From contig JAUYOV010000004.1 of assembly GCA_030697795.1 (NCBI GenBank), forward strand, positions 144,403 to 208,402: 64,000 nucleotides of DNA, given 5' to 3'. Within the stretch, counting starts at the first letter, position 1. Each line of letters starts with the position of its first letter. Position numbers and translations under genes: made by a program. Source of the DNA: a bacterium. GTDB taxonomy: Bacteria; Patescibacteriota; Minisyncoccia; JACQLN01. The notes under the pieces were generated by a model. The model had not been told where the DNA came from. It was given only the letters and a program-made list of their open reading frames with translations, and ran no database searches. This document shows, piece by piece, positions 2,450 to 19,346 of this stretch.

Positions 2450-3817
2450 TTAAACCGCAACTATCTTTTCCAAAAAATCCACATTGCGCTTATAAGCCGA
2501 GCCATCTTGAGAAGCAAAAAAACTATTGGCGATTTTTTGACGACTAGCACTACCAATTTTTGGGTTAGCTAGGTAAGTATTTATAATTTTAATAAGTTCA
2601 TTATTATCTACCGCCACTGTTACCGCACCCTCTTTAACCAGCGGATAATAATAAGACCCTTCTTGGTAGTAATAATTATTTTGAAAAGGCGCTGTCGGAT
2701 CAATAAAATTAACCACAGGTTTATCAAAAATAAACGACTCCAAAGAAATAGTGGATTTATAATTAATGTTAATATCAGTGTGGGCCAATGTTGACTTTAA
2801 ATTAATGAAATCGGCTTGATCCATTTCAATTCTACTCTCTCCAGACTGAATTTTAACCTCTCGACCAGCTTTTTCAAGATAAAAATCAGGTTCATCTTGT
2901 ATGTCCCGATAACTTTCTCCACCGTTAAAGGGATGTAAACGGACTAGTACATTCACTGGTGGCAACTCACCAATCTGGCGTGCTTTCAAAATTGCCTGGA
3001 GTACTGTTAACTGATATGGGCAATTCCCCGAAGCAACTGTGGCAAATAAAATAGTTTTCTTATTGGGATCTAAATTTTTAGACAGTAAAAACTTATTGCG
3101 GTCAATAATGGGATGAGAATCGTCAAAATATTTATCAAACCGAGTGCTTCCGGTTATATAAACCCGTTGTGGAGAAAAGTAATGAACAGCCAGTGCTGCC
3201 TCTTGGATAATTTTATTCCAGACAAAAAGATAATCCGGTTTACGCACTCGTACCGCTTTAAAAGCTGTTAGATTATCCCAACTAAAATTAGTTGCTAAGG
3301 TAAGTATCTTGAATTTTTTTGCCAGAATGATTGCTTCGGCGTCAAAAACTTGAATCCCTGGGGTAGCGGTTATAACTAAAACTGGTTGATATTTTTTAAC
3401 ATAATCTTGAAAAAGACTAACATGGCAAGTAAAAATGGTTTCCAGTTTGGTAAAAAAATCTATGGTCAGTAATGGTGCCAACGGCCAGGACAGAAAACGA
3501 AGCAACCGAGCCCGCTTGTCTCTTCTAAATGGCCGGCTATTATAATATATCTTCATGCTCGGCAAACGATCCAGTTCATGCATGCAAGCCATCCTTAAAA
3601 ACTTAAAAATGGCAAACAACTTTGGGTTTTGAACCCGCCAGTTAACATATTCCACATTGGGCGAAGAAAAATATTCTCCCGCTTGCACACTTTCCAAACT
3701 GATAGTATTGCTAAAAATAACCACTCGGTATTTCTCCGAGAGGTATTTGATATAATTAGTTTTTAATAAATCCGAAATAAACAGACTATTTTTTAAAAAT
3801 AAAAAAACAGTTTTCAT
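2450..3817 (-). CDS. TagB/TagF-like CDP-alcohol phosphotransferase family protein (Glyphos_transf-like)
   Basis: 455 aa; VLVRLHP ... LAHTDININYKSTISLESFIFDKPVVNF resembles the K-HP / TDYSS / kP motif layout of teichoic-acid glycerophosphotransferases; paralogous to 13632-14963. Confidence 0.35.
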   Translation of the reverse strand: MKTVFLFLKNSLFISDLLKTNYIKYLSEKYRVVIFSNTISLESVQAGEYFSSPNVEYVNWRVQNPKLFAIFKFLRMACMHELDRLPSMKIYYNSRPFRRDKRARLLRFLSWPLAPLLTIDFFTKLETIFTCHVSLFQDYVKKYQPVLVITATPGIQVFDAEAIILAKKFKILTLATNFSWDNLTAFKAVRVRKPDYLFVWNKIIQEAALAVHYFSPQRVYITGSTRFDKYFDDSHPIIDRNKFLLSKNLDPNKKTILFATVASGNCPYQLTVLQAILKARQIGELPPVNVLVRLHPFNGGESYRDIQDEPDFYLEKAGREVKIQSGESRIEMDQADFINLKSTLAHTDININYKSTISLESFIFDKPVVNFIDPTAPFQNNYYYQEGSYYYPLVKEGAVTVAVDNNELIKIINTYLANPKIGSASRQKIANSFFASQDGSAYKRNVDFLEKIVAV

Positions 3818-3826
3818 TTTAATAAT

Positions 3827-4717
3827 TTATTTAACCACGCGGGCAACCAAAATACCAGTACCAAAAGTTACTTTTTGAGGGTAGTCCTTATAGAAAAAAA
3901 TAGGCTCAAGCCCAAATTTTTGGAATTCTTTATAGCTGGATCGGAAATAATCCACCCTGTTTAAATGTAGTCTACCCTTAAAACCATTGGCCTCCCGAAA
4001 AGGTTCAAGAAAAATACAATATTTTTTTGTTACTCTACATATTTCTTCTAAAGCCTTTGGGTAACTATGCGGCATTTGTTCCAACACCATAATCGTAAAA
4101 GTGGCATCAAAAGAGTTATCGGGAAAATCCATTTGTGTCGCATCACCATTAAAAAACTTTATCTGCTTCAAATTTTCCAGACTTTCCTTGCTAATTAAAT
4201 ACTTCTCTCCAAAAAAATCAGAAATCAGCTGTTTGGGAAAATTGGTAATAAGTTCCTGGCTTCTTTGGGTGCCCATACGCGACAGCTCCAACCCTGTTAA
4301 TTTCAGTTTTGGATTCTGAAAAGATAATAGAGTAATATTATCACCTCGCCCAGATCCGACCTCTAAAACTGATCTGCAATCCAATTGATCAAAAAGTTGT
4401 GAAACGATTTGCAAATAAATATTCTTACCAAACCACTTATTTGTTATCAATTCTTGATTCGCAAAGACACTTTTATAAGTGGCTGTGGTCATTTGCCTAA
4501 CCCACGCTTCGTTACCCAGACCCCAAATCTTTTCATACGTTTTTTTAACTAAATGCTGATTTCTGACTCCTCGACCGACGTTACCATAACGAACCAAGTT
4601 GGTGATTTCGCGAGCGCAATCTAAAAAGTATTGAGCCCAATAAGAAATTCCCCCCACAGGAATTGGGCTTTTTACTTGGCAGTGGCGCGGCAAAGAAAAA
4701 GAAATTTTTAAATTCAT
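3827..4717 (-). CDS. class I SAM-dependent methyltransferase
   Basis: LEVGSGRGDNITLL motif I; FDATFTIMVLEQMP post-I motif. Confidence 0.7.
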   Translation of the reverse strand: MNLKISFSLPRHCQVKSPIPVGGISYWAQYFLDCAREITNLVRYGNVGRGVRNQHLVKKTYEKIWGLGNEAWVRQMTTATYKSVFANQELITNKWFGKNIYLQIVSQLFDQLDCRSVLEVGSGRGDNITLLSFQNPKLKLTGLELSRMGTQRSQELITNFPKQLISDFFGEKYLISKESLENLKQIKFFNGDATQMDFPDNSFDATFTIMVLEQMPHSYPKALEEICRVTKKYCIFLEPFREANGFKGRLHLNRVDYFRSSYKEFQKFGLEPIFFYKDYPQKVTFGTGILVARVVK

Positions 4718-4724
4718 TTTAAAA

Positions 4725-5705
4725 TTAGTAATCAGAAACTGCTTTTTTAGATGGTTGATTTTTCAGTGCGTAGCGCGCCAACTCATGCTGAGTAACCAGC
4801 TGTCTGTCAAAATTCTCCGGATAACGATACATAACTGGCCAAAGAGATGCTTGAGAACTATAACAAGCCGTGAACATTACCCTTTCCTTTGTTGTCGCTA
4901 AGCCACCCTTATGTAAGCCGCTGGTGTCGCAAAAAACTAAAGTCCCAGCTTTGCCGGTAATTGTTTTGACGTTCTCTTTCGGTATTTTTCTCTCAACTGA
5001 TCCGGCCGGCGGATAAAAACCTTTGGGTGGACGCTGTGGAAAAATATTCCGCCAAGGACCTCCGTGTTGAGAACCAATTACATATGTAAATGGACCGGCT
5101 TGTTCGTCTACATCATTTAAATAAAGAAAAACCTTGCACATCTTTTTGTCTTCGGGATCCCGATGCCAACGTTGTGATTTAATAGCTTCAATACCTACTC
5201 CAACTGGAACAGTAACATTTAAAGTAAAAATACGGAATTTGGAAAAAAGCCCCAAATAACTGTTAACGATTTCTAAAATTCGCGAATCCAACGCCAGCGC
5301 CACAAATGGATTATCAAGATTAATTAATGGGAACATCTCCCATAGCTCCTTTAAAAAGGGCTTGCCCCTTCTTGATTGGGCTGTGGGCAATAGTTGCTTA
5401 AAATATTTTTCCAGTTGAAATAGAATTTCTTCTGGGAAAAGTTCGTTAATATGGACTATGGCCAGACCCTTATCTTTCAGGTCTTGAATAATTTTTTTTT
5501 GAACATTGGACAAAACTACAGTGGCATTATATTTTCTATACAAACGAACACTTTCGCGATTTAAAATAAAGTACCAAACCGGCCAAGATGTCCGGATAGC
5601 GTAATAGGGCCTAGTCACCAAAAAAACCAACAACTTTTTAAAACGTCCTAGAACTAATAAAGCACGATTAACTATTTTTAAAATATATCTTTTGTAAATA
5701 AACAT
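4725..5705 (-). CDS. Fe(II)/2-oxoglutarate dioxygenase, PhyH-like
   Basis: WHRDPED ... DEQAGPFTYVIGSQHGG (H-x-D ... H facial-triad layout typical of the phytanoyl-CoA dioxygenase family). Confidence 0.5.
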   Translation of the reverse strand: MFIYKRYILKIVNRALLVLGRFKKLLVFLVTRPYYAIRTSWPVWYFILNRESVRLYRKYNATVVLSNVQKKIIQDLKDKGLAIVHINELFPEEILFQLEKYFKQLLPTAQSRRGKPFLKELWEMFPLINLDNPFVALALDSRILEIVNSYLGLFSKFRIFTLNVTVPVGVGIEAIKSQRWHRDPEDKKMCKVFLYLNDVDEQAGPFTYVIGSQHGGPWRNIFPQRPPKGFYPPAGSVERKIPKENVKTITGKAGTLVFCDTSGLHKGGLATTKERVMFTACYSSQASLWPVMYRYPENFDRQLVTQHELARYALKNQPSKKAVSDY

Positions 5706-5711
5706 TGGCGT

Positions 5712-6890
5712 TTAGGCAACCCAAAGTTTTATATTATCCTCAAATTGCACTTCTATCGGTATTTTTGGTGAAGAAACAAACGGAATAGCTAACGGTTCAA
5801 CAAGAACACATCTTAATTTGGTAGATCTCCATTGGGACGAGAATGTGGACCATAACCATTTTTTAAATGACCCTCCTCGTACCATTTTTTCACACCTGTT
5901 TTGATAATCAGGCCAACTCCAATAATAACTAAGATTTTTGAGTCGTTTCTTTAACAATAAACCGCTTTTTAATTTCATAATAGCCTTATCGAAATAATTT
6001 CCGGTTTTTGTCTCGCTCTGAGGAAATTGACCTGTCTTTTTGGCAACTACATTAATATACTGATCCGTGGTTAAAGAATCATCAATAATTTGATACCCCG
6101 CATTATTAAGCAACATATTTAATGATTTTATCGTGAAAGAGTGAAGATGGGGCAAGTATAGTAAGGTGCCCATGGCTGCTTCCTGTGCAAAATTCGGCAC
6201 ACTTAAAATAATCAAATCTCCATTTTCCTGTAAACAGGAAATTTTTTCGAAAAAACTATCTGGTTGAGTGACATGCTCAAGTACATGCTGAGCAAGAAAC
6301 ATCCGCACTGGGGCAATATTCTTTAACTGATCTTGAACCAAACTACTTTCAAAATCCCCGAAGAGCACATTCATACCATAACCCTGTGAAGCAACCACAA
6401 CTTGAGCTCTTGAACTCTCTACACCTACTAAATTCCTAAAGCCCAATTCAGAAAGTTGTCTTAATGATTGGCCAACACCGCTACCAATTTCACACACCAC
6501 AACTTCTTTATATTCAGAAAATTTGTTAGCTAGCCTGATGGTTACATTCATCTTTAACATTAGTTGGCTCATTTCGACTTTTCTTTTAGCTTTATCTATT
6601 CTTTTCTCTAAATTTTTAAATGACTGATCGCCCCATTCTTCCGAATAAAAATTACTAATCCATGATTGAGTCGGCCTATCCATGTAAGCTACATGCCCAC
6701 AAAAATCACAACATCCGATTCTTAAAAAATTTTTATACTTGATACTGGTCAAAGCACAAACCGCTTTAAAGGCCAAACCACACGCGGGACAGTTTTGATA
6801 AAACTCCAACGGAATACTGGGGTTTATTTCCATAGGCCTAAATTTATTTAATTTTACAAACTCCTTTATTTTGAATCCCAATTTTTCCAT
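5712..6890 (-). CDS. SAM-dependent methyltransferase with N-terminal Cys4 zinc ribbon (sugar C-methyltransferase-like)
   Basis: CPACG...CCDFCGH zinc ribbon followed by VVCEIGSGVGQSL motif I; this architecture resembles TylC3/TcaB9-type sugar C-methyltransferases. Confidence 0.5.
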   Translation of the reverse strand: MEKLGFKIKEFVKLNKFRPMEINPSIPLEFYQNCPACGLAFKAVCALTSIKYKNFLRIGCCDFCGHVAYMDRPTQSWISNFYSEEWGDQSFKNLEKRIDKAKRKVEMSQLMLKMNVTIRLANKFSEYKEVVVCEIGSGVGQSLRQLSELGFRNLVGVESSRAQVVVASQGYGMNVLFGDFESSLVQDQLKNIAPVRMFLAQHVLEHVTQPDSFFEKISCLQENGDLIILSVPNFAQEAAMGTLLYLPHLHSFTIKSLNMLLNNAGYQIIDDSLTTDQYINVVAKKTGQFPQSETKTGNYFDKAIMKLKSGLLLKKRLKNLSYYWSWPDYQNRCEKMVRGGSFKKWLWSTFSSQWRSTKLRCVLVEPLAIPFVSSPKIPIEVQFEDNIKLWVA

Positions 6891-6908
6891 GGCAAAATTA
6901 TTAAAATT

Positions 6909-8129
6909 TTAAAAGAGTGAGGATACGCCCAAAAGTTCCGAAACCTTTTTATTAAACCTCCTAAATTCATCTCTCTGTTCTTCGAAAACATTTCTAAACC
7001 TATCTTTTAATTCTTTTTTGTTGGCCAAAGCATGCCGGGCTTTAATATAAACTTTATCTGCTAAATCAAGATCAAAAATATCGACTCCAATATCCTGCAA
7101 ACCGACATTATCTAGAAAATCCGACATACGTGTTTGAGAAATTAAAGGAATCATCGGCGTACCTAAACCAATAGACGGTGACATTGAATGAATTCTCATA
7201 CTAAGCGCCAGATCAGCTTTGGCATAGCGGCCATAGAAATACTCTGTCTGGGAAACACGCTGTAAACCAGTGGAGATGGTAACCTGATGGAGAATCCTGG
7301 GTTTCAAAAAGCCAATCAATTCGGTCATGGTTTTGTAGTCGTCAAAATAATGTGGTACAAGAATAAGATTTAGTTCTTGTTCAGCAACTAGTCTTTCAAT
7401 GGCTCGGGCTAATCGTTTCAAAAAAATCGTCTTTCGTCCTTGCCAATCTGGGACATTACGCCAGAACTTTAAAAGTCTATTTTCGGAAACATGGGAACCT
7501 AAAACCGACCAGAACAACTCTCGAGTTCTACCACCATAGCGATAAACTTCATCTTCATTATTGAGAGATAATAACACATTGGGCTTGTCCCGGACCAATT
7601 CAGGATATTCGTGATCGGTGGCTGTAACAAAAAGAGCTGGATCTGGAACCTCAATAATTCTATCTGATTGGTAACCAATCAGGGATTCCAGCCAGGGTTT
7701 ACAACCGTCATTGCGAACCGCGAATAAAACTTTAGGATTAGAGAGTAACCAAGCCATAGCCTTAATCAATTTGTCACGATGATGATAATATTGCTTGGGC
7801 CAAAATTTATAGGAAATACCGTAAAAAATTATGGGTTTTTTAATCTGTGTCAAAAGATTATAGGGCAGATCTAAACGAAAACCGGTATTAGGCAAATAAT
7901 GTCTGCCGTTAAAAGCCACGGCTCCACCCACCAATAATCCGTCAGCATTATTAACTTTATCAACAAAACTTTGGTCAAATTTTTTTATTTCAAAAGTATA
8001 ATCATCCCACGGTTCAGCTAAAAACTCTACGGGACCGAGGTCTTCAGTCAAAACTCGTTCGGTACCATAAATTAAAGCTCCATTACCAATATTGGTACTT
8101 TTGAAATTAGCGAGGTGAATTAGTTTCAT
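6909..8129 (-). CDS. polysaccharide pyruvyl transferase family protein
   Basis: N-terminal NIGNGALIYG and C-terminal SMRIHSMSPSIGLGTPMIPL match the CsaB/WcaK-type conserved blocks. Confidence 0.55.
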   Translation of the reverse strand: MKLIHLANFKSTNIGNGALIYGTERVLTEDLGPVEFLAEPWDDYTFEIKKFDQSFVDKVNNADGLLVGGAVAFNGRHYLPNTGFRLDLPYNLLTQIKKPIIFYGISYKFWPKQYYHHRDKLIKAMAWLLSNPKVLFAVRNDGCKPWLESLIGYQSDRIIEVPDPALFVTATDHEYPELVRDKPNVLLSLNNEDEVYRYGGRTRELFWSVLGSHVSENRLLKFWRNVPDWQGRKTIFLKRLARAIERLVAEQELNLILVPHYFDDYKTMTELIGFLKPRILHQVTISTGLQRVSQTEYFYGRYAKADLALSMRIHSMSPSIGLGTPMIPLISQTRMSDFLDNVGLQDIGVDIFDLDLADKVYIKARHALANKKELKDRFRNVFEEQRDEFRRFNKKVSELLGVSSLF

Positions 8130-8134
8130 CCTAT

Positions 8135-8884
8135 TTAATTAAGCTGGGGCAGATAACCCCTTTTTATCAAAAACTCAGCTAATTCCAAATCCATAGGCGT
8201 ATCAATGTCAATTGTTTTATTAGAGTCAACAACAATTCCTCGCAAATCTTTCCCCCAAACTCTTCCTTTTTTTATAAATTTGGTCCGGGTAATATCCACA
8301 TTACTATCCTGCAAGTAGGCCGGATCAAGCCATTGCCTCGGAACATCGGTAGTGTGTTTAGCAAAATATTTTGTTAATAAAATTGGCATTAGCTTGTTAG
8401 TGTTCTTTTTGAATTTCCACATTTTGTAGGGACTGTGCGATGGAATATGCACTGTCCGTACTGAATCACATTTTGTTTTTTCTATATATTCTATAGCTTG
8501 ATCAATATCTTTACTGGTTCTAAAAGGACTAGTGGGTTTTAACAAAACAATAAACTCCGGCTGCCAACCGCGATGTTTTTCTGCCCACTCCACAGCATGC
8601 TTTAAAAATTCAATATCGGTTGAATCAGCGCGAGCATACTTTTTGGGTCGTAAAAATGGGACATCGGCCCCAAATGATTTAGCTACTTCGGCAATTTTTA
8701 AATCATCTGTAGAAACTAAAAAAGCGTCTAACTTAGTAGCGTTTTGAGCTGCTTTAATGGTGTAATAAATCAAAGGCCGGCCGGCCAAAGGCGCGATGTT
8801 TTTATAAGGAATACCTTTAGAACCTCCGCGAGCCGGAATAATTCCTAATGTCCTTACATCTTTAATATTTTTACTCATTATCAT
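8135..8884 (-). CDS. neuA: acylneuraminate/ulosonate cytidylyltransferase (CMP-sugar synthetase, NeuA/KdsB family)
   Basis: GIIPARGGSKGIPYKN signature of the CTP_transf_3 family. Confidence 0.8.
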   Translation of the reverse strand: MIMSKNIKDVRTLGIIPARGGSKGIPYKNIAPLAGRPLIYYTIKAAQNATKLDAFLVSTDDLKIAEVAKSFGADVPFLRPKKYARADSTDIEFLKHAVEWAEKHRGWQPEFIVLLKPTSPFRTSKDIDQAIEYIEKTKCDSVRTVHIPSHSPYKMWKFKKNTNKLMPILLTKYFAKHTTDVPRQWLDPAYLQDSNVDITRTKFIKKGRVWGKDLRGIVVDSNKTIDIDTPMDLELAEFLIKRGYLPQLN

Positions 8885-8904
8885 TATATACTAATATTTA
8901 AATT

Positions 8905-8978
8905 TTGGGGTTTATTTGTCAATCAAGCTGAGCTTGGTCAACCGAGCTTAGCTCGGTCAATAAAAACTATCTTTATTT
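8905..8978. repeat. two tandem short palindromic hairpins (caagctGagcttg; ccgagcTTAgctcgg), each preceded by (t/g)gtcaa
   Basis: Perfect palindromes read directly, between the SDR stop and the neuA start. Confidence 0.4.
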
Positions 8979-8979
8979 T

Positions 8980-9735
8980 TTACCAAGCTGTTCGTCCACC
9001 ATCCACAATCAAACAAGCACCTGTCATATATGAAGATGCATCCGATGCCAAAAAAACAATCGGACCGTTATATTCTCCTACCTTAGACATTCTGTTTAAC
9101 ATATTAAGTTCAGAATTTCGACGAACAAAATCCTCTGGCTGGTTTCTATACATGCCACCTGGCACAAAAGCGTTAACTCTTATATTATACGAACCTAAAT
9201 AAGCCGCCCAAGACCGCATCAGGCCTAATACGCCCGCCTTGGAAGTAATGTAGGCAATATCTTTAAACTTCCCAGCATCATAGATACGATTTTGGGGGCC
9301 AATAATGGCCAAGTCCGAAGCTATAAAAATAATTGAGCCAAACTTCTGTTGGATCATATGGCACACCACCGCTTGAGTAGGTAACATTTGACCCTTCAGA
9401 TTTATATCAATTTCCCGGCTCCACAATTTAGATGAGAACACTTCATAAGGAGCCCAACTATTTTCATTTTTACCACTGCCAACCTGCGTGTTAAAAGCAG
9501 CATTATTTATTAACACATCAATACGCCCAAATTTTTTTACAACCGCCTTGGTTGCTTTATTAACACTGGTAAAATCCATAACATCAACCTTTGTTCCCAG
9601 ATCCCAATTAACAACTGTGGCACCACGTCCCCTTAGAAACTCGCAATACTGCTTCCCCAAAAAACCACTGCCTCCAGTTATTATAATGACCTTACCTTCT
9701 ACCGAAAAAATATCTTTCATAAAAATATAACCCAA
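8980..9735 (-). CDS. SDR-family NAD(P)-dependent oxidoreductase
   Basis: ITGGSGFLGKQ Rossmann motif; NNAA; 251 aa. Confidence 0.7.
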   Translation of the reverse strand: MGYIFMKDIFSVEGKVIIITGGSGFLGKQYCEFLRGRGATVVNWDLGTKVDVMDFTSVNKATKAVVKKFGRIDVLINNAAFNTQVGSGKNENSWAPYEVFSSKLWSREIDINLKGQMLPTQAVVCHMIQQKFGSIIFIASDLAIIGPQNRIYDAGKFKDIAYITSKAGVLGLMRSWAAYLGSYNIRVNAFVPGGMYRNQPEDFVRRNSELNMLNRMSKVGEYNGPIVFLASDASSYMTGACLIVDGGRTAW

Positions 9736-9788
9736 TAAAAAGCCAAGAGGTTTTTGCTCTTGGCTATTAATCTACGTCTAATAGCTTT

Positions 9789-10283
9789 TTACTTTTCCAT
9801 CGCTTCTAAAATCAAGTCACAAACTTCTCTGACGGCATGATCCCCACCCTTGCGGCTGGTTACATAATCGGCAATCGCCATACATTCGACATGACCATCA
9901 GCCACAGTAAAAGCTAAACCCGCAAATTTGAGACATTCCATGTCATTGATATCATCACCCATAAAAGCTATTTCTACTATAGACAGATTTCGAGCCTGTA
10001 GTAATTGCTTAAATGCGATCAACTTTTCATCCACACCCTGCAAGCAATCAACCTTCATTTTTTCACAACGTTTAGTCACCACAGGATTTTTTTCTTTGGA
10101 TATGACCACGAGATCAACCCCGTGCTTTCTCAACTCTGGAAACCGCAACGTATCTTTGCGGCTACAAATCACGCTTTCATTACCGTGTTGATCTACAATA
10201 ACCTTGCCATCGGTAAAAATACCATCAAAATCAAAAGCAATCAATTTCAACTGCCTCAATCGTTTTGACAGATCTGAACCCAT
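9789..10283 (-). CDS. kdsC: HAD-IIIA phosphatase, KdsC family (ulosonate-phosphate phosphatase)
   Basis: LIAFDFDGIFTDGKVIV ... GDDINDMECL; 164 aa, typical KdsC size. Confidence 0.75.
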   Translation of the reverse strand: MGSDLSKRLRQLKLIAFDFDGIFTDGKVIVDQHGNESVICSRKDTLRFPELRKHGVDLVVISKEKNPVVTKRCEKMKVDCLQGVDEKLIAFKQLLQARNLSIVEIAFMGDDINDMECLKFAGLAFTVADGHVECMAIADYVTSRKGGDHAVREVCDLILEAMEK

Positions 10284-10289
10284 AATATT

Positions 10290-10882
10290 TTACCTCCGAT
10301 AGTTAGGGTTAAAAACTAACTCAACCATTTCACAAAAATAATGAATCAGAAAAGTATGAACCTCCTGTATCCGAGCAGTGCTGTCGGATTTTACTACCAC
10401 ACTATAATTCACCATTCCTCTAACCTGACCACCCCCACGACCCAAAAGACCTATAGTGGCTAAACCCTTATTTCTCCCAACCTCAACAACTCTGACGATA
10501 TTAGATGAATCGCCGCTAGTGGAAAAAACCAACAAAATATCGCCACTCTGTGCCAAAGCCTGAACCTGCCTTGAAAAAATCGCATCAAAAGAATAATCAT
10601 TGGCAATGCAAGTGATCAAGCAGAACTTGAGGTTAAAGAGATAGCTGGCAAGGGCGCCCTATCTGTTTTAAAGCGGCCCATCAATTCCTCGGTAAAATGT
10701 TCGGCAATACAAGCACTGCCGCCGTTGCCACAAGATAATATTTTGTAACCAGACCTTAACGCGCTAACAATCAAAGTGCCAATAGCATCAATAGTTTTTT
10801 CTTCACTTACTAAGGTAGCGAAAGTATCAGCAAGTGTTTTTAGCTCTGGCCCCAACTTTATACCTGATGATTGCCCGATCAT
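10290..10882 (-). pseudogene. gmhA: SIS-domain sugar-phosphate isomerase (GmhA-like) split by a -1 frameshift near 10617-10621
   Basis: ORF 10616-10882 (…LSCGNGGSACIAEHFTEEL…PAISLTSSSA*) and ORF 10290-10619 (ITCIANDYSFDAIFSRQV…LVFSTSGDSSNIV…RIQEVH) together align colinearly with GmhA; the first ORF's TGA overlaps a TTG that opens the second frame. Confidence 0.6.
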
Positions 10883-10994
10883 GACTATCTCCTCTTCAAA
10901 AAGTTAAAGAACTAACTGACTTGTAATATAACCCATTAAAAAGCCGGCGAGTTTTGACACTCGCCGGTTGCGTTTTTTCGCCTATTAGAATGAA

Positions 10995-11864
10995 CTATCC
11001 CTTGCGTCGGAGCTTCTTCATAACCGGTATTTCCGATTCCAAGAGTTTTTTGACACCATCGCCCTGTGACTGTTCAAAAATCCTGATTTCCTCTGCTAAT
11101 TTCTTGCAACCCTCATGCTCAATACTGGCCGATTGATCCGTACCCCACATAGCCCTGTTAAGCGTGATGTGGCGTTCCACCATACAGGCACCCAGAGCTA
11201 CCGCCGTCAAAGAGGGGTATAAACCGACCTCGTGACCACTGTAACCCACCGGCACTCTATAGCGTTCTCGCAGAGTTTGTATGACTCGGAGATTCAGCTC
11301 ATGCCAATCAGCAGGATAGGTAGCTACACAATGCATCAGAACCAGGTTTTCTACCCCCAGAACAGAAACAGCGTGATCCACCTGCTCTAATGTACTCATA
11401 CCAGTAGAGATGATAACGGGCTTACCCTTGCCTTTGGTATAACGGAGAAGATTATCATCAGTCAGAGAAGCCGAAGCGATCTTGTAGCACGGCGGGCTGA
11501 ATTGATCTATAAAATCAACACTCTGTTCATCCCAACAAGAAGCAAACCAGATGATACCCTTTTCCTTACAATGACGATCAATCTCCCTATACTCATCTTG
11601 ACCAAACTCCAAACCTCGCTTGAGATCACCGTTAGTAGAACCGAAAGGATTTTCCCGGGGACGCGCTAATTCTTCGGGTGTATACACTACATCAACAGTT
11701 CTTTTCTGAAACTTAACCGCATTCCACCCCGCCTCTACAGCAACATCTACCAGCTTCTTGGCAATTCCAACATCACCATTATGGTTTATGCCTATTTCTG
11801 CCACTAGAAAAATCCTGTGGTCGCCTACCAGTATTCCGCCACTATTTACAACATTGGAATTCAT
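10995..11864 (-). CDS. neuB: NeuB-family PEP-dependent ulosonate (sialic-acid-type) synthase, short form without C-terminal SAF domain
   Basis: FLVAEIGINHNGDVGIAKKLVDVA signature; 289 aa. Confidence 0.8.
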   Translation of the reverse strand: MNSNVVNSGGILVGDHRIFLVAEIGINHNGDVGIAKKLVDVAVEAGWNAVKFQKRTVDVVYTPEELARPRENPFGSTNGDLKRGLEFGQDEYREIDRHCKEKGIIWFASCWDEQSVDFIDQFSPPCYKIASASLTDDNLLRYTKGKGKPVIISTGMSTLEQVDHAVSVLGVENLVLMHCVATYPADWHELNLRVIQTLRERYRVPVGYSGHEVGLYPSLTAVALGACMVERHITLNRAMWGTDQSASIEHEGCKKLAEEIRIFEQSQGDGVKKLLESEIPVMKKLRRKG

Positions 11865-11958
11865 ACTTTCCCCTTTCTCTGGTTTTTTGGTTGAATTTTA
11901 TAAGAACCATCCTTGGCTTATCTTAAATCTAATAACTTCTAAACTACCCCCATGGTTT

Positions 11959-12900
11959 CTAATCTGTTTTATTTAGATTTAAGAAGTCTTGAACATCGTT
12001 GGTATCGTAGCGCGGTATTAACATAGCTTGATCATTTTTTGAAACGGCCATTGGCTCAATAGTAACAGCGTATTTAAAACCCTCTTCAGCTAAAACTTTA
12101 ATGGTACTAACTCCAGCCCGCCCGTGTGGATAAGAAAATATAACTGGAGTTTTAGCTAGTAAATCTTTTAAAACTGTATTAGCCAATCTAATATCTCGCT
12201 TTAAAACATCGCCACCCAGAGTATCTAGCGCGTAATGACCATGAGAGTGGTTGCCAATTTCCATATCCTGATCACGTAATTCTAAAATTTGCGTTTGACT
12301 CATAAAAATTTGTCGGCTCAATTTTTTTTCATCAAGCCGCGTTGTTTTAAAACAGTATCTTAAAAATCTGCCCTTAACATCCTCGGGTAGGCCAATCATA
12401 GTTTCCTTGAAATTGGCGGTGGGTATATCCTCATGTTGCCTGCGCTCAAACAATCGCTTGTCTGTGGGAATAAAATAAACAACTTTAAGATCAGAATAAA
12501 ACTCACCCAGAAACCTGTGGAAGACATCAATAAGTTCGGAGGAAGATAGCTTAGAAAGTAAAACATGTATCTTATGGGTAGCCGGCAAACTGCCTTCAAA
12601 AGTAGAGGTTATGGGGAAAAAAGTCCCTCTGACTTTATACTTGTTCAATATTGGCACCGCATTATCATATTGTCCCTTCAAACCATCATCAAAAGTGATA
12701 GCGCAAAACTTTCCCTTTGACTCTTTTCGGGCAAAATCAAAAACTTGGCCTACGGAAACAATCTCATAATTTTTAGACAAAAAACTTATCTGCTTTTCAA
12801 ACTCCTTGACTGGACAGGGATGTATGCCGCCCCAAGCCGCACGAGGATCTTCAACATAATGATAATTGATTATAATATAGTTGTCTTGGGAAGAAATCAT
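11959..12900 (-). CDS. polysaccharide deacetylase (NodB-homology) family protein
   Basis: FCAITFDDGLKGQYDNAVPILNKYKVRGTFF; HGRAG His motif. Confidence 0.7.
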   Translation of the reverse strand: MISSQDNYIIINYHYVEDPRAAWGGIHPCPVKEFEKQISFLSKNYEIVSVGQVFDFARKESKGKFCAITFDDGLKGQYDNAVPILNKYKVRGTFFPITSTFEGSLPATHKIHVLLSKLSSSELIDVFHRFLGEFYSDLKVVYFIPTDKRLFERRQHEDIPTANFKETMIGLPEDVKGRFLRYCFKTTRLDEKKLSRQIFMSQTQILELRDQDMEIGNHSHGHYALDTLGGDVLKRDIRLANTVLKDLLAKTPVIFSYPHGRAGVSTIKVLAEEGFKYAVTIEPMAVSKNDQAMLIPRYDTNDVQDFLNLNKTD

Positions 12901-12924
12901 ATAAAATATCGGCGCCGACCGATT

Positions 12925-13614
12925 TCATTTTTTCCTTAAGATGTAATAAACCCAATTGCCAAACCATTTATTCTCTGGTAGAAACTTCAATCTTTTCAGC
13001 ACCGGCAAACTAATTTTGGAATGGATATAACCTTCTTCAATCAACTCAAAATATTTTAGAAAAGTTTTTTCGAATATGCCGTGCGGAAAAACACTTATAT
13101 GATTGTTTGTTTCATTCCATCTAGGAAACAAACCCTTTTTTAAAAAAATAAGACGGGATACAATGTGAAATATATTTGGCACAGAAAAAATAAACAAACC
13201 TTCTGGCTTTAAAATCCTGTGGATTTCTCTAATGGCATGATGCGGATTTTCTAAATGCTCAAAAACTTCCCAAGCACTTACAACATCAAAAAAACAATTA
13301 TCCCACTTAAGATTCTCAAGACTTATATCCAAGTCATTAAACTCCTTTATTAATGGTTTAAAATCCGTGGCTATATAATTATCGATATCACAGGCATAAA
13401 TATTTTTATAGCCACGGTCATGCACTGCCTTGAGAAAAGCTCCGGAACCTGTTCCTATATCCAACACTTTAGCCTCTTTGTTCAAAACAGTTCTTTCAAA
13501 AATACCGATATTTCTGCCTTTCAGAGCTAACAACCTTCTGTCGGGATGAATTTCAAATCTTTTTTGGATCGTTTCTTTGTCATTTTTTATTTCACTGGGA
13601 TTAAAATATTTCAT
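12925..13614 (-). CDS. class I SAM-dependent methyltransferase
   Basis: VLDIGTGSGAFL motif I; ACDID motif II. Confidence 0.7.
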   Translation of the reverse strand: MKYFNPSEIKNDKETIQKRFEIHPDRRLLALKGRNIGIFERTVLNKEAKVLDIGTGSGAFLKAVHDRGYKNIYACDIDNYIATDFKPLIKEFNDLDISLENLKWDNCFFDVVSAWEVFEHLENPHHAIREIHRILKPEGLFIFSVPNIFHIVSRLIFLKKGLFPRWNETNNHISVFPHGIFEKTFLKYFELIEEGYIHSKISLPVLKRLKFLPENKWFGNWVYYILRKK

Positions 13615-13631
13615 ATATATTACAATTTATT

Positions 13632-14963
13632 TTAGACTAACTTTTTAAGTATAACATCGGCTAACCTTTTACCAGATTGGCCGTCCAATTTCCAGCATCT
13701 CTCTTCAATAATCTTTTTTCTCCCCGCTAAGTCTAAATTAGGGTTGGCCAAATAACGCTCCAAATATACGATCAGGCCTGCCGGTGTCTTGGCCAACTTA
13801 ACCCCTTGAGTGCTTAAAATGGAACGTTGGTGATCGTAGTCGTAAAATCGACGCAAGCTTTTCCAATATGGTCTCTTCGCCTCGCCATCAAAACCTACAA
13901 AAATCACCGGTTTATTAAATACCGTAGCATCTATAGCTAAGGTTGAAGCAAAAGCCACCACTACATCGCTATGATACAGCAAATCAGCCAAATAGGCATC
14001 CTTGCCGGTAAGATCAGCTGACATAAAATCATCCCCTTTGCCAGGATTATTTATAACCAATCTTCCCGGAATTTCTTTGATGCCATCTAAATTCACACTG
14101 CCAACTATATATAATCTAAGAATGATTTGAATATCTATTGTTTCCAATGCATCAACCACTTTCTTGGTTATAGAATCTCCTTGCGTATAAATATCGCTAG
14201 GGGCGGCAAAAAAAATAGTCTTTTTGTTAGGATCCAGCGCCAGCTTTTCAAATAATAATTTTTTAGAAATTCTTTTTTCAGCAACATAGGCATCATAATG
14301 GGGTATACCCACTATAGAGACGTTATCTGGCTTGAAATCACAATATCTTACAGCTTCTTCTTTTATTTTAGGTGTATTAACCACAAGTTCATTTGTCATA
14401 ACCTTATTCAAACCCTTGGTGGTTATGTTATCCCAAGAACGAACCATACCTATAACATGAACCCCTCTTCTTTGGGCTGATTGGATCATACAAACATCGC
14501 TCGGTTCAAAGATGTCGGTGGCAAAAACAAGATCCGGTTGGTATTTTTCGAAATAACGGGCAAAGGTCTCATCCCTTAAAAAAAGACGGCCCAACCAGCG
14601 TAAAAACGACCTAAAGATTTTAAATTTAGAACTTTTCGCCGCAATAAAATGCCAGCCCGAACTCAAATACTTCCCATATTTTTTGCGCTCAATAAGTCGG
14701 TGTATTCTGCGGGCGGCGGTATCCGAAGCATTCAAGAATAGTGCCGAAATAATTCGCTCCCAAAAAAAACTTGGCATCTTATCCACCCCCTCTATCTCAA
14801 TGTTCCCCGCAGAAAACATTTTTTGGTAAGACGCTTTTTTTTCTTGGGGCGCAAAAATAATTATTCTTATATCCGGCTGACTGCCTAAAATTCTTAAAAA
14901 ATCAGTAGCCAGAATATTTCTAGCAATCAATCCAAAAAAACTGGATACGAAAATAGTTTTCAT
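13632..14963 (-). CDS. TagB/TagF-like glycosyl/glycerophosphotransferase family protein (paralog of 2450-3817)
   Basis: Similar length and N-terminus (MKTIFVSSFF vs MKTVFLFLKN) and a similar C-terminal FNKPVIFVGFDG block. Confidence 0.3.
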   Translation of the reverse strand: MKTIFVSSFFGLIARNILATDFLRILGSQPDIRIIIFAPQEKKASYQKMFSAGNIEIEGVDKMPSFFWERIISALFLNASDTAARRIHRLIERKKYGKYLSSGWHFIAAKSSKFKIFRSFLRWLGRLFLRDETFARYFEKYQPDLVFATDIFEPSDVCMIQSAQRRGVHVIGMVRSWDNITTKGLNKVMTNELVVNTPKIKEEAVRYCDFKPDNVSIVGIPHYDAYVAEKRISKKLLFEKLALDPNKKTIFFAAPSDIYTQGDSITKKVVDALETIDIQIILRLYIVGSVNLDGIKEIPGRLVINNPGKGDDFMSADLTGKDAYLADLLYHSDVVVAFASTLAIDATVFNKPVIFVGFDGEAKRPYWKSLRRFYDYDHQRSILSTQGVKLAKTPAGLIVYLERYLANPNLDLAGRKKIIEERCWKLDGQSGKRLADVILKKLV

Positions 14964-14972
14964 AGGTATTAT

Positions 14973-16391
14973 TTATGTTTTAACAAAAAAAGATCTCGCC
15001 GCCATTATAAACTGACGTCCTACTTTAGATATTATTTCCTTATCTAAACTGTCAAATTTCATTAACCCGCCCCATTTTAATTTAAATTCTGGATACTTTT
15101 TTACTAACTGGCTATAGAAAAGAACCACACGTTCAATATAAACAATCCCATAAACAACGCCCGCGCCTAAAATCCCTAAAGTGGGCAGAAAAATAAGCGA
15201 ACCTAATGGTAAAATAATGACCTCGTTAAACAAACGGAGAGTTAAAATTTTGTATTCCCGTAAAATAGTTAGAGTGGTCTTAAGCAATTTATATGTACCA
15301 TAGATGGGCAATACCATCAACATAATTATAACTAGGGGTAAAGCCGGGACGTAATTGGGGAAAAGCAGTGGTATCACATTGGGAATAACCACCAGGCCTA
15401 ACACAAAAAGAATCGAGCCCAACCATACAGTATACTTAACCGCTTTTGTAAAAATAAAACTGGCCTGGTTTTTGTTATCTATCCTTAGCAATAAAACCTC
15501 GCCTATGCCTTGTGTGGGCATTAACTTTTCGACAAAAGCCACCAAGTTTAGAGATAATGAATAGAAAGCTACCGCCTCTACATTTATAAAAAACTTAATC
15601 AACCAGGGCATACTGTTTTTGGTCAATTGGGCCAAACCATACCTTAAGAAAATAAATCCGCCATATTTTTTTAAAATTTCAGCAAACATAGTCAATCTAC
15701 GTTCAGATTTCAAACCACCGAAAAAATGTCCGTATGCCTTAATGAAAGACCATAAAGTAATCACTACCAACGCCACGGCTTCTCCTATAATATGAACAGT
15801 GACTACATTTAAGATACTTAGTGTAGAATAAAAAAACAACACAGCCAGCAACAAAAACTTAGTCACTTCTCTAATGGCTGGCGAAGCCCAATAAGAAAAT
15901 ATCAGCGCTGGTTTAAGCAGGGCGGTTTGGACCGACTGAAGAGTATGAATAATAATCAAAATCGCGCCTATCTTAATGATTGAGGAAATATCTTGATCAT
16001 AGAATCTGGCAATAACCTCAGCACCTAAAAAGGCTACCAAAAACAAAACCAGTGCCAGAGAAATTCTAACAAAAGCGCTTTCCAGAAAAAGTTGCTTGGC
16101 TTCTTTAAGCTTGTGCGTGTTGAAATATCTGCGGATTTCAACAACAACCACATTGGCCACAATACCGGCATTGAATCCTTGTAAAATGGCTATAAACGAT
16201 AGCAATAGTTGGTAAAGACCAAACTGAAAAACACTCAAACTGGATATGATAAAAAAGGAACTAGCTAAACTAAAAAAGGTGGCTAGGGCTCCATAAAAAC
16301 GCCTAGTGGTTTCTACGCTCACAAAATAGCTGGACAATCTTTTGGGCTTATTATTAGGTTCCATATTTTTAGACATAGAATTAATTTTCAA
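14973..16391 (-). CDS. wzx: oligosaccharide flippase, MOP/Wzx-like
   Basis: 472 aa, about 12-14 hydrophobic helices; sits in the glycan locus. Confidence 0.55.
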   Translation of the reverse strand: MKINSMSKNMEPNNKPKRLSSYFVSVETTRRFYGALATFFSLASSFFIISSLSVFQFGLYQLLLSFIAILQGFNAGIVANVVVVEIRRYFNTHKLKEAKQLFLESAFVRISLALVLFLVAFLGAEVIARFYDQDISSIIKIGAILIIIHTLQSVQTALLKPALIFSYWASPAIREVTKFLLLAVLFFYSTLSILNVVTVHIIGEAVALVVITLWSFIKAYGHFFGGLKSERRLTMFAEILKKYGGFIFLRYGLAQLTKNSMPWLIKFFINVEAVAFYSLSLNLVAFVEKLMPTQGIGEVLLLRIDNKNQASFIFTKAVKYTVWLGSILFVLGLVVIPNVIPLLFPNYVPALPLVIIMLMVLPIYGTYKLLKTTLTILREYKILTLRLFNEVIILPLGSLIFLPTLGILGAGVVYGIVYIERVVLFYSQLVKKYPEFKLKWGGLMKFDSLDKEIISKVGRQFIMAARSFFVKT

Positions 16392-17472
16392 TAAAAACGG
16401 CTAGCTTGTTTATCAACTGTACCAAACTATGCTTTTCCACAACTAATCGGCGCATAAAAACAGTTATATTTTCTTGCTCGTTGTTTGTAATCTTAGTATA
16501 GGCAATTATTTTTTCGGCAAGGTCACCAACATTTTCTTCCTTAAAAATAACTCGATTTTTATACGCTATTGGAATTATAGCCTCCACTGTTTTATTAGAA
16601 ACCAAAACCAACAAGCCACAAGCCATAGCTTCTAGTATAGTTTTATCAAAACTGCCGGTAGGGGTAAGATTAACAAAAACTCCGCTACTATTATAAACTT
16701 CTGGAGTTTTTTGATTAGATATCGCTGGCCTAAACTCAATCTTGCCCCTAGACAACAAATCCGCCGACATTTTTTTTAACTTTAATTCATATTCTTTATC
16801 AACTATAGAAGAACTGGGAGAACCGACTATCAAAACCTTAAAATCAAAACTGCGATTATCCAATATTTTGGCGGCTTCGATAAGATATTCTATTTTTTTA
16901 ATGGGCGAAATCCGCCCTAAATATAATACCTGCCTGTTATTTTTTGAGATTTCCGGCATTGGCCTAAAAAAATTTGTATCTACACCCACTGGCATTAGTG
17001 AAGTTTTTTTATACTTAGCCGAAAAAGAGTAAGGCGATGTGCAAAAAACTTTATTAGAAAAAAATATGCCGACCATGGCTAACATATTACCCATGGGGTG
17101 GTTATACCATAGAAAAATTTTCTTATTCATCAGTTTCCAAAAAACACCACCTAGAACTAGATAGATTGGGTTCATATGAACTAGAACAGTATCGTATTCC
17201 TTTCTTATTGAAAAAATATATTTATAAAACCTATAAACATACTTTAACTTCCAAATAATTTCTAATTTCCAATTTCTAATTTCTAAATTTCTTTCGTCTT
17301 TACCTAAGGAAAAAACATTAATACTTTTATCCAAAGTGCTTTCGCCTTTATATAAGCAAATGATGTTGAGTTTATTTGTTTTTTTGGCCAATTCTTCCGC
17401 CCAGCGGTGATAAACACCCAAAACATCGTCGTTTTTATCTATTTTTTGAGTTATAAAAAGCAATTTTGCCAT
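16381..17472 (-). CDS. glycosyltransferase family 4 (GT-B)
   Basis: LGRISPIKKIEYLIEAAKIL; EAMACGLLVLVSN (E-x7-E-like motif). Confidence 0.75.
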   Translation of the reverse strand: MAKLLFITQKIDKNDDVLGVYHRWAEELAKKTNKLNIICLYKGESTLDKSINVFSLGKDERNLEIRNWKLEIIWKLKYVYRFYKYIFSIRKEYDTVLVHMNPIYLVLGGVFWKLMNKKIFLWYNHPMGNMLAMVGIFFSNKVFCTSPYSFSAKYKKTSLMPVGVDTNFFRPMPEISKNNRQVLYLGRISPIKKIEYLIEAAKILDNRSFDFKVLIVGSPSSSIVDKEYELKLKKMSADLLSRGKIEFRPAISNQKTPEVYNSSGVFVNLTPTGSFDKTILEAMACGLLVLVSNKTVEAIIPIAYKNRVIFKEENVGDLAEKIIAYTKITNNEQENITVFMRRLVVEKHSLVQLINKLAVFIEN

Positions 17473-18542: not shown

Positions 18543-18693
18543 ATTTTGTTCGTGAGCGTTAGCGAGCGACTACAAAATATAGAACCCCGCACCAAACCTG
18601 CAGAGAGAGTTTTTTGGTGCAAAGTGAAAGCCGCAGGCGTTTCGCTGTAGTATTTTTTTGATGTAAATATTCGATTGGGTTTTGGTGCTGGGG

Positions 18694-19344: not shown

Positions 19345-19346
19345 TT

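Follow-up and report, generated by a model that had tools for sequence, protein, structure and literature searches.

What sugar acid does a bacterium of the candidate phyla radiation (CPR) make when it carries a NeuB-family synthase among its surface-glycan genes? The question is raised by a cassette at positions 8135-11864 of a 64,000-nucleotide stretch of contig JAUYOV010000004.1, referred to below as the window. The original prediction saw here four adjacent genes that form a complete route to an ulosonic acid by condensation with phosphoenolpyruvate (PEP), and proposed that a heptose-phosphate isomerase might feed this route. The coordinates are exact, running from the open reading frame (ORF) of the CMP (cytidine monophosphate)-transferase to that of the NeuB-family protein, all on the minus strand. 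For this locus our results are mostly a correction, since the cassette has five genes, one of them a broken isomerase gene, and its sugar would not be unusual for CPR bacteria. On balance, and by a modest tilt, we favor the view that the cassette encodes a phosphorylated, NANS-type route to a nonulosonate of the Kdn (2-keto-3-deoxynononic acid) type by way of a 9-phosphate.

The synthase and its partner enzymes

Read 5′ to 3′ on the minus strand, the cassette consists of a synthase, a split SIS isomerase gene, a HAD phosphatase, a short-chain dehydrogenase/reductase (SDR) and a cytidylyltransferase; the SDR gene, between those for the phosphatase and the CMP-transferase, had been overlooked. 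The synthase (10995..11864, minus strand, 289 amino acids) matches PF03102 with 257.5 bits over residues 38-272 and contains the motif VAEIGINHNGD. It has no PF08666 match and ends at residue 289, which bears out its description as a short NeuB form without the SAF domain. Directly after the synthase gene lies an intrinsic-terminator-like hairpin, CCGGCGAG..CTCGCCGG followed by a T run (10944..10967, minus strand). The isomerase gene comes next as two pieces on the minus strand, an N-terminal half of 88 amino acids (10616..10882) that ends in TGA and whose residues 24-87 match the SIS_2 and GmhA models, and a C-terminal half of 109 amino acids in the -1 frame (10290..10619); together the halves form a probable pseudogene. 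The next intact gene after the synthase is therefore that of the phosphatase (9789..10283, minus strand, 164 amino acids), and a second terminator-like hairpin (9741..9765, minus strand) separates it from the SDR gene (8980..9735, minus strand, 251 amino acids; 246 in an external gene call that begins at ATG 9720). Both hairpins (10967-10944 and 9765-9741) are strong. The cytidylyltransferase gene (8135..8884, minus strand, 249 amino acids) completes the set.

The best-scoring characterized relative of the window synthase is human NANS (39% identity, 203 bits, E 5e-68 in BLASTP, with a query sequence that matches NP_061819.2 exactly). Next to it stand the Kdn 9-phosphate (Kdn-9-P) synthase of Prymnesium parvum (35% identity, E 4e-42; Prymnesium sequences were taken from the supplement of PMC6200933) and a BT1714-like protein of Bacteroides thetaiotaomicron (32% identity, E 4e-44), a 346-residue synthase with a SAF domain that we recovered beside a 99%-identical copy of BT1713. 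These closest characterized synthases all use 6-phospho-sugars; the Prymnesium enzyme, which is SAF-less and has 312 residues, is specific for mannose 6-phosphate (PMC6200933). Neisseria meningitidis NeuB (NmNeuB) scores only 99 bits, and among solved structures the best relatives are the SAF-less Leptospira protein 6ncs (143 bits, phmmer), then Campylobacter jejuni PseI and Bacillus subtilis SpsE. The synthase misses the equivalog cutoffs for both NeuB (TIGR03569, 250 vs 399.65 bits) and PseI (TIGR03586, 200 vs 340.25 bits). Phylogenetic placement had been set as a test, and in our neighbor-joining trees NeuB, PseI, SpsE and 6ncs split from a group that contains the window family, NANS and the Prymnesium Kdn-9-P synthase, with 98% bootstrap support in the first tree and 74% when more taxa were included.

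Catalytic residues were compared with twelve NmNeuB reference positions (E25, K53, Q55, K129, S132, E134, Y186, S213, H215, E234, H236 and D247). Identical residues are found in the window synthase at E23, K51, Q53, K128, S131, Y183, S209, H211, E230, H232 and D243; the exception is E134, replaced by S133, and the Prymnesium enzyme also has a serine there. In addition, NmNeuB F112 corresponds to a tryptophan. The original prediction had named missing catalytic residues, or a phylogeny tying the genes to unrelated pathways, as the outcomes that would count against it; because the residues are present and the tree places the synthase on the NANS/Kdn-9-P side, it survives on both.

A sequence signature further separates the two sides of the tree. 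It consists of KFQK[RS] and a loop, N-[SP]-[FWY]-G-x-T-x-G-x-x-[KR]-x-x-L-E-[FL], between strand 2 and helix 2, and was derived in this analysis from four phospho-sugar enzymes rather than taken from a published definition. The window synthase reads KFQKR ... ENPFGSTNGDLKRGLEF. The signature is common to the window family, human NANS, the Prymnesium Kdn-9-P synthase, the BT1714-like protein and a Streptomyces NANS-like protein, and it is absent from NmNeuB, PseI and 6ncs in our alignment. This region is the loop that has been described as favoring phosphorylated substrates in NANS (PMC8208679). An AlphaFold model of the synthase is a NeuB-type TIM barrel with a mean predicted local distance difference test (pLDDT) score of 78.8 and TM-scores of 0.75-0.83 against 6ncs, PseI, SpsE and NeuB, although the signature loop itself is modeled with low confidence. 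KdsA and DAHPS structures match at the fold level only, with 10-17% identity, and a fold search of the PDB gave nothing beyond the sequence search. From sequence, we predict that the synthase is of the NANS/Kdn-9-P synthase type, condensing PEP with an aldose 6-phosphate to give a 3-deoxy-nonulosonate 9-phosphate.

The partner enzymes fit such a product. The phosphatase is a C0 HAD protein of the KdsC/YrbI type, as originally described, that scores above the cutoff of that family (TIGR01670, 122.2 vs 106.95 bits) and has the HAD motifs FDFDG, within FDFDGIFTDG, and GDDIND. With the Kdn-9-P phosphatase of B. thetaiotaomicron it shares 32% identity, its PDB matches are KdsC, BT1713 and a putative HAD hydrolase, and its predicted role is to release the terminal phosphate from the product of the condensation. 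The cytidylyltransferase (PF02348, 85.6 bits; motif IPARGGSKGIPYKN) had been called a NeuA/KdsB-type CMP-transferase, and the NeuA half of that label is the one to keep: it matches CMP-N-acetylneuraminic acid (Neu5Ac) synthetase 6ifd with 112 bits vs 33 bits for KdsB in the PDB, stays short of the PseF cutoff at 145 bits, scores no more than 58 bits with any KdsB model, and passes no equivalog cutoff. Over its N-terminal 163 residues it is 36% identical to the Prymnesium CMP-Kdn synthetase. We therefore regard it as a NeuA-type CMP-nonulosonate synthetase, and this transferase, together with the NANS-type synthase placement, supports the earlier view that the cassette has the architecture of the Kdn-9-P and Neu5Ac 9-phosphate pathways and not that of the KdsA route. 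The SDR is a classical one (PF13561/PF00106, with TGxxxGxG and YxxxK motifs). Among NCBIfam models it comes closest to those of sugar-acid dehydrogenases, for example gluconate 5-dehydrogenase and the 2-keto-3-deoxy-gluconate enzyme KduD, but reaches the cutoff of none; it is 37% identical to an SDR beside the cytidylyltransferase in an Azospirillum locus of the legionaminic acid (Leg) type. It is predicted to catalyze a tailoring step or an oxidoreduction of the precursor.

Linkage and the isomerase gene

The synthase belongs to a large clade. More than 8000 database proteins match it, with about 55-70% identity across phyla, and counting one genome per species the family is present in at least 594 species. 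These include Chloroflexota, Acidobacteriota, Myxococcota, Nitrospirota, Verrucomicrobiota, Planctomycetota, Actinomycetota, Melainabacteria, Pseudomonadota and an archaeon, as well as the CPR groups Peregrinibacteria, Peribacteria and Saccharibacteria and also Doudnabacteria. The decoration had been thought unexpected in a CPR organism, a view that the same family and cassette in these groups overturns. Cultured carriers, found in a plasmid collection at 50-53% identity, are Methylomagnum ishizawai RS11D-Pr, Azospirillum thermophilum CFH 70021, Hymenobacter psoromatis and Nonomuraea gerenzanensis. About 30% of the NeuB superfamily lacks the SAF domain, and SAF-less homologues have already been recognized as a large 'environmental' group of unknown function (PMC8208679). 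Among the papers listed by literature searches on this gene combination and on nonulosonic acids in CPR bacteria, none joined 'nonulosonic' with a CPR term.

To count linkage we retrieved 80 species loci and recorded homologues of window genes within 6 kb of the synthase. The KdsC-like phosphatase is present in 68 of the 80 loci, usually within 100 bp of the synthase, followed by the cytidylyltransferase (36/80), the SDR (28/80), the GmhA-like SIS protein (22/80) and an AP_endonuc_2 TIM barrel (15/80). Cytidylyltransferase and phosphatase are fused in 19 loci, and phosphatase and SIS protein in five plus the locus L008. Other recurrent neighbors are GFO/IDH/MocA oxidoreductases, extended-SDR epimerases/dehydratases, thiamine pyrophosphate (TPP) enzymes, DegT aminotransferases, FkbM methyltransferases, TagF-like proteins and KpsC/S-like proteins.

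Several of these loci have features of their own. In Nonomuraea gerenzanensis (L093, 7636-9861), a single frame of 742 codons without a stop covers the domains of the cytidylyltransferase, the KdsC-like phosphatase and the synthase. It may encode a three-domain fusion protein, but the genome is high in guanine and cytosine (GC), which calls for caution, and the record is unannotated. In 19 loci (L035, L053 and 17 others, the Acidobacteriota examined included), the phosphatase is followed by an acetolactate-synthase-like TPP enzyme of about 610 residues and an FkbM methyltransferase, whereas Methylomagnum has a split transketolase, a class III aminotransferase, a GNAT protein and lipid acyltransferases instead. 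Such TPP-enzyme, transketolase and aminotransferase neighbors hint at two-carbon extension or amination chemistry. In the Melainabacteria, in Gastranaerophilales loci (L029, L047, L060 and others, at about 7200-9400), the pair of synthase and phosphatase genes is flanked on one side by a FliO-like gene, which has chemotaxis genes upstream of it, and on the other by TPR and aspartokinase genes. Its neighborhood contains neither a cytidylyltransferase gene nor glycan genes, a housekeeping-like setting for which a glycan model does not account.

The nearest relatives recovered with flanking DNA (L007, L095/L096 and L097; synthase identity 78-81%) define the composition of the cassette more closely. 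L097 has the order NeuB–HAD–SDR–cytidylyltransferase–pyruvyl transferase, with the last two genes overlapping and ordered as in the window, while L007 and L095/L096 have NeuB–HAD–SDR–AP_endonuc_2–GFO and, on the other strand a few genes farther on, the cytidylyltransferase. In all of them the SDR directly follows the phosphatase, and none has a SIS gene between synthase and phosphatase. The cassette that the original prediction sought in related genomes is thus kept there (NeuB–HAD–SDR with a CMP-transferase in L007, L095 and L097), minus its isomerase. As these relatives keep the set without the SIS gene, the core in this sub-lineage is synthase, phosphatase, SDR and cytidylyltransferase. In agreement with this, DNA alignment places about 600 extra bases in the window exactly between the synthase and phosphatase genes.

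The GmhA-like gene of the window is split by a one-base deletion, with TT where TTT is expected. The junction reads TCT GCT TGA, and the downstream frame runs from the last T of GCT as TTG ATC ACT (10616-10619). A -1 repair yields a 197-residue protein that aligns without a gap at the junction to GmhA of Pseudomonas aeruginosa and of C. jejuni (E about 1e-42; 5.6e-43 for P. aeruginosa), scoring about 150 bits against GmhA structures. The catalytic and metal-site residues of GmhA are the His and Glu of an HxxxE motif and a Gln and a His near the C-terminus; in an alignment of the repaired protein with its cassette orthologues, H62, E66, Q173 and H181 are invariant. The earlier assignment of a GmhA-like SIS isomerase is thus right about the domain, but the -1 frameshift had gone unnoticed, and because the gene is frameshifted the route that includes it is not complete.

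We considered several origins for this frameshift. It recurs in the Logan assembly L009 (run SRR13727529), which is 100% identical over 10,870 bp, and so is not an artifact of one assembler; the independent assembly was likely built from the same reads, so an error in the consensus could still lie behind it. Recoding of the TGA codon was rejected, as in-frame read-through, judged by eye, gave no GmhA similarity, whereas the -1 repair aligns gap-free. Programmed frameshifting is unlikely because the site has no slippery heptamer. A frameshift that recurs in a second assembly, in a gene missing at this position from the nearest relatives with flanking DNA, suggests either gene decay in progress or a read error shared by both assemblies.

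The repaired protein misses the GmhA equivalog cutoffs (TIGR00441, 185.9 vs 209.45; NF010546, 186.5 vs 276), and seven other cassette-linked SIS proteins likewise score below every NCBIfam GmhA cutoff. With all eight below these cutoffs, the substrate need not be sedoheptulose 7-phosphate. GmhA chemistry yields an aldose phosphate of manno configuration, and we infer that such chemistry on fructose 6-phosphate would give mannose 6-phosphate, the substrate of the Kdn-9-P synthase. In this sub-lineage the isomerase is an accessory gene, inactivated in this genome; in some other lineages, as the phosphatase–SIS fusions show, it clearly belongs to the pathway.

Proposed route and competing products

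In the route that we favor, the SAF-less synthase would condense PEP with an aldose 6-phosphate, most plausibly mannose 6-phosphate, to a nonulosonate 9-phosphate, from which the KdsC-type HAD phosphatase would remove the phosphate, and the NeuA-type cytidylyltransferase would then form the CMP-sugar. The SDR may contribute an oxidoreductive step, either tailoring the 2-keto-3-deoxy acid or preparing the acceptor. The pyruvyl transferase, methyltransferases and PhyH-like dioxygenase of the surrounding locus could decorate the sugar, and the TagF-like and glycosyltransferase family 4 (GT4) transferases, the flippase and the LytR-CpsA-Psr (LCP) ligase could build a wall glycopolymer and attach it, as for the Kdn 'teichulosonic acids' of actinobacteria. 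In other lineages, the GmhA-like isomerase would act as an accessory feeder that converts a ketose phosphate to a manno-configured aldose phosphate, a function inactivated here.

Several points weigh against a Kdn-type product. The window synthase is less than 40% identical to every characterized enzyme, which makes its acceptor a prediction. The phosphatase scores below both the KdsC equivalog (NF007019, 122.7 vs 208) and the Kdn-9-P phosphatase model (NF058599, 93.7 vs 180). A gene for mannose 6-phosphate supply was not found in the window, and the terminator-like hairpins divide the cassette into separate transcription units, making co-expression putative. Since the canonical Kdn pathway has no step for the conserved SDR, the final product may differ from plain Kdn; the AP_endonuc_2, GFO/IDH/MocA, aminotransferase and TPP-enzyme neighbors seen elsewhere in the family also hint at more elaborate chemistry. 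We accordingly give some weight, though clearly less than to a Kdn-type acid, to the proposal that the clade makes an ulosonic acid not yet described. This might be a nonulosonate that the SDR tailors, or an epimer, or else, where the isomerase gene is intact, a C10 acid from heptose 7-phosphate, and uncultured bacteria, among them CPR episymbionts, could then carry it widely on their surfaces.

Taken separately, the first of these options is a new Kdn-derived acid, an oxidized, epimerized or otherwise tailored nonulosonate on which the SDR acts after condensation, by analogy with the formation of 8-amino-8-deoxy-Kdo (Kdo8N) from Kdo (3-deoxy-D-manno-octulosonic acid). The SDR lies within 6 kb of the synthase in 28 of the 80 loci and in all nearest relatives examined, its best below-cutoff matches are to 2-keto-3-deoxy-gluconate and gluconate 5-dehydrogenases, and class III/DegT aminotransferases, extra SDRs and xylose-isomerase-like TIM barrels recur nearby. 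The window, however, has neither the aminotransferase nor the AP_endonuc_2 gene, and the function of the SDR is not readable from sequence, such that its substrate might just as well be the precursor or a different sugar in the glycan; we consider this option rather unlikely. The second option would have the SIS protein make D-glycero-D-manno-heptose 7-phosphate from sedoheptulose 7-phosphate, with PEP condensation, dephosphorylation and CMP activation giving a C10 3-deoxy-ulosonic acid. The recurrence of the SIS gene (22 of the 80 loci), its fusion to the phosphatase in five loci plus L008, and the score of the repaired protein against genuine GmhA structures, with H62, E66, Q173 and H181 kept, all speak for it. 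CMP-linked ulosonic acids with a C10 backbone have moreover been reported from mass spectrometry of Magnetospirillum, but these carry two N-acetyl groups and are described beside derivatives of the pseudaminic acid (Pse) and Leg type, a chemistry unlike that of this cassette (bioRxiv 10.64898/2026.04.20.719630). The eight cassette SIS proteins also fall below every GmhA cutoff, and the closest characterized synthases use hexose 6-phosphates. The larger acid from a heptose-phosphate feeder, as first proposed, is unlikely in this genome because the SIS gene is frameshifted, in two assemblies, and is absent from the nearest relatives with flanking DNA and from 58 of the 80 loci; for the cassette in general, we judge a C10 product improbable.

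Two known sugar acids complete the comparison. Neu5Ac could be made as in animals from N-acetylmannosamine (ManNAc) 6-phosphate via Neu5Ac 9-phosphate, as the best-scoring characterized relative, human NANS, makes Neu5Ac 9-phosphate and uses mannose 6-phosphate less well, and as the phosphatase and cytidylyltransferase set, its fused form included, mirrors the vertebrate enzymes. Yet NeuC/GNE, NanE, NanK and an N-acetyltransferase were not found in the glycan locus (534-21611), no ManNAc or ManNAc 6-phosphate supply or N-acetyltransferase family is among the annotated recurrent neighbors, and what does recur as an accessory is a ketose/aldose phosphate isomerase, in keeping with a sugar that carries no amino group. 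This product seems to us as doubtful as the C10 acid. Least probable of all, in our view, is an analogue of the Kdo pathway in which the SIS protein serves as KdsD, converting ribulose 5-phosphate to arabinose 5-phosphate, and the NeuB-like enzyme replaces KdsA to form Kdo 8-phosphate ahead of the KdsC-like and CMP-transferase steps. The phosphatase does pass the KdsC/YrbI family model and has KdsC among its best PDB matches, Capsule_synth proteins resembling KpsC/KpsS, which we take to be beta-Kdo transferases, lie near the cassette in eight loci, and the Gastranaerophilales pair occurs in a non-glycan, housekeeping-like context. Against this, the cytidylyltransferase is clearly of the NeuA type (112 vs 33 bits for KdsB), and CPR bacteria are not known to have lipopolysaccharide. 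The Prymnesium enzyme, in addition, does not use arabinose 5-phosphate (PMC6200933 Table 1). We also tried the idea that the pair replaces KdsA in lipopolysaccharide-core operons with MsbA and WaaA, and rejected it, as by Pfam the pair-only loci have TPR, aspartokinase, TPP-enzyme and FkbM genes instead.

Surrounding locus and known systems

All ORFs from 534 to 22540 are on the minus strand, and the cassette is enclosed by a surface-glycan locus of about 2450 to 21611, in keeping with its original description. This locus encodes two TagF-like proteins, five methyltransferase-domain proteins, a PhyH-like dioxygenase, a pyruvyl transferase, a polysaccharide deacetylase, a Wzx-like flippase and three GT4 glycosyltransferases, one of which has two GT4 modules. 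The polysaccharide pyruvyl transferase gene (6909..8129, minus strand; PF04230) lies 5 bp downstream of the CMP-transferase gene, and its product is a possible modifier of the same sugar or glycan. One TagF-like (Glyphos_transf) protein is a GT-B protein with a weak PF04464 match (13632..14963, minus strand), which we infer to be a candidate transferase or polymerase for the glycopolymer; the other (2450..3817, minus strand) matches PF04464 with E 7.8e-9. PDB sequence searches with both gave no matches. TagF-like genes lie near the synthase in 8-11 loci, and are also found in the relatives L007 and L095. An LCP family ligase is encoded elsewhere in the window (54226-55245, plus strand). In monoderm bacteria this class of ligase attaches wall glycopolymers to peptidoglycan, and its presence fits a wall-linked product of the glycan locus.

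A PhyH-like dioxygenase (4725-5705, minus strand) and O-methyltransferases lie near the synthase/phosphatase pair in the window and also on the Azospirillum thermophilum plasmid (L091, 10842-11591), and may represent recurrent enzymes that tailor the ulosonic acid. The synthase/SIS segment (10001-12000) has a GC content of 42.6% vs 37-39% in neighboring genes of the locus, which is compatible with strong constraint at the protein level or with lateral acquisition of the cassette. Adjoining the glycan locus (22672-26451, minus strand) is a gene for a 1259-residue protein in which only a peptidoglycan-binding domain, at the N-terminus, is recognizable. GC content is raised there (45-48% vs about 37% in the flanks), and the gene may encode a large protein of the surface or wall, or may have been acquired horizontally.

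The rest of the window encodes ClpB, NrdJ, HisS, FtsA, FtsZ, MurD, the LCP ligase, ComEC and DprA. Among named relatives, a Patescibacteria protein comes closest to its FtsZ (96% identity), from which we conclude that the window comes from a CPR bacterium, as had been supposed; further named FtsZ relatives are from Moranbacteria and Portnoybacteria. ComEC is encoded by two minus-strand ORFs that overlap by 17 bp, one with the Competence domain (39339-40511) and one with the metallo-beta-lactamase domain (38507-39355), and the DprA gene is at 62468-63544 (plus strand). Both are natural-competence genes, as reported for CPR bacteria. A 643-residue Mfd-like protein (59824-61755, plus strand) matches positions 292-820 of the 907-position model TIGR00580, below its cutoff, and would be a truncated transcription-repair coupling factor or a RecG-like helicase.

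If a Kdn-type product is correct, many uncultured lineages, among them several CPR groups, Chloroflexota, Acidobacteriota, Myxococcota and Melainabacteria, would share a phosphate-dependent route to sialic-acid-like sugars in the style of animals and Bacteroides. The cassette would also provide a genetic entry point to the Kdn-like acids found in environmental biomass. For CPR cells, it would suggest the display of an acidic, possibly pyruvylated or methylated wall glycopolymer of relevance to host attachment. New sugar chemistry may be reached through the recurrent SDR, GmhA-like and AP_endonuc_2 partners, and cultured carriers are available for pursuing it.

Among known systems, the Kdn pathway of B. 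thetaiotaomicron (BT1714 synthase, BT1713 phosphatase, BT1715 CMP-Kdn synthetase) has the same three-step logic as the window cassette. The synthases share the phospho-sugar loop motif and the phosphatases are 32% identical, but the BT1714-like synthase is 346 residues long with a SAF domain and only 32% identical, and the window phosphatase scores 94 against a cutoff of 180 on the BT1713 model. Beyond the three Bacteroides steps, the window cassette has an SDR, which is conserved, and the broken gene for a GmhA-like isomerase. The vertebrate NANS–NANP–CMAS pathway passes through a 9-phosphate intermediate, as proposed here, and vertebrate CMAS has the domain order of the CMP-transferase–KdsC-like phosphatase fusion of the 19 related loci. 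In the window, phosphatase and CMP-transferase are separate genes; the synthase lacks the C-terminal antifreeze-like domain of NANS, and a supply of ManNAc 6-phosphate was not found. The SAF-less Prymnesium synthase is eukaryotic, no dedicated phosphatase was found in that organism, and the identity is too low for its specificity to be transferred (PMC6200933).

Kdn wall polymers occur in monoderm actinobacteria that carry TagF homologues and LCP ligases, and the teichulosonic acid of Streptomyces contains methylated Kdn (PMC7831098, PMC11481543); 7,9-pyruvylated Kdn is found in a wall polymer of Promicromonospora (PMC6801904). The window locus likewise has TagF-like, methyltransferase and pyruvyl transferase genes, with the LCP ligase elsewhere in the window, and by analogy its pyruvyl transferase and methyltransferases fit these known decorations of Kdn. 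In contrast to the actinobacterial polymers, the window glycan is predicted from genes, and a link between the TagF-like proteins and a CMP-ulosonate is presumed. The one Streptomyces homologue examined is SAF-containing, NANS-like and 38.5% identical to the window synthase. The Kdo pathway (KdsD, KdsA, KdsC, KdsB) follows the same order of steps, from SIS isomerase through PEP condensation and a KdsC-fold phosphatase to CMP activation; the window differs in that its synthase is of the NeuB family and not KdsA/DAHPS, its isomerase is GmhA-like without CBS domains, and its transferase is of the NeuA type. Finally, in the legionaminic acid loci of Campylobacter and Plesiomonas (PtmA SDR with PtmB/LegF), an SDR of about 250 residues adjoins the CMP-nonulosonate synthetase, as in the window, whose cassette however has no LegB, LegC, LegG or LegH genes. 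We had also considered equating the SIS–SDR pair with PtmF and PtmA, but the Plesiomonas table lists PtmF as a 326-residue oxidoreductase, and we keep only the positional analogy between the SDR and PtmA. A phosphate-dependent route to Kdn was thus already known from Bacteroides and from algae (the algal case in PMC6200933). What is new is a conserved SAF-less clade with the signatures of phospho-sugar synthases and a fixed KdsC-like partner, together with the recurrent linkage of an SDR, a GmhA-like isomerase and a TIM-barrel protein that the canonical pathway does not explain.

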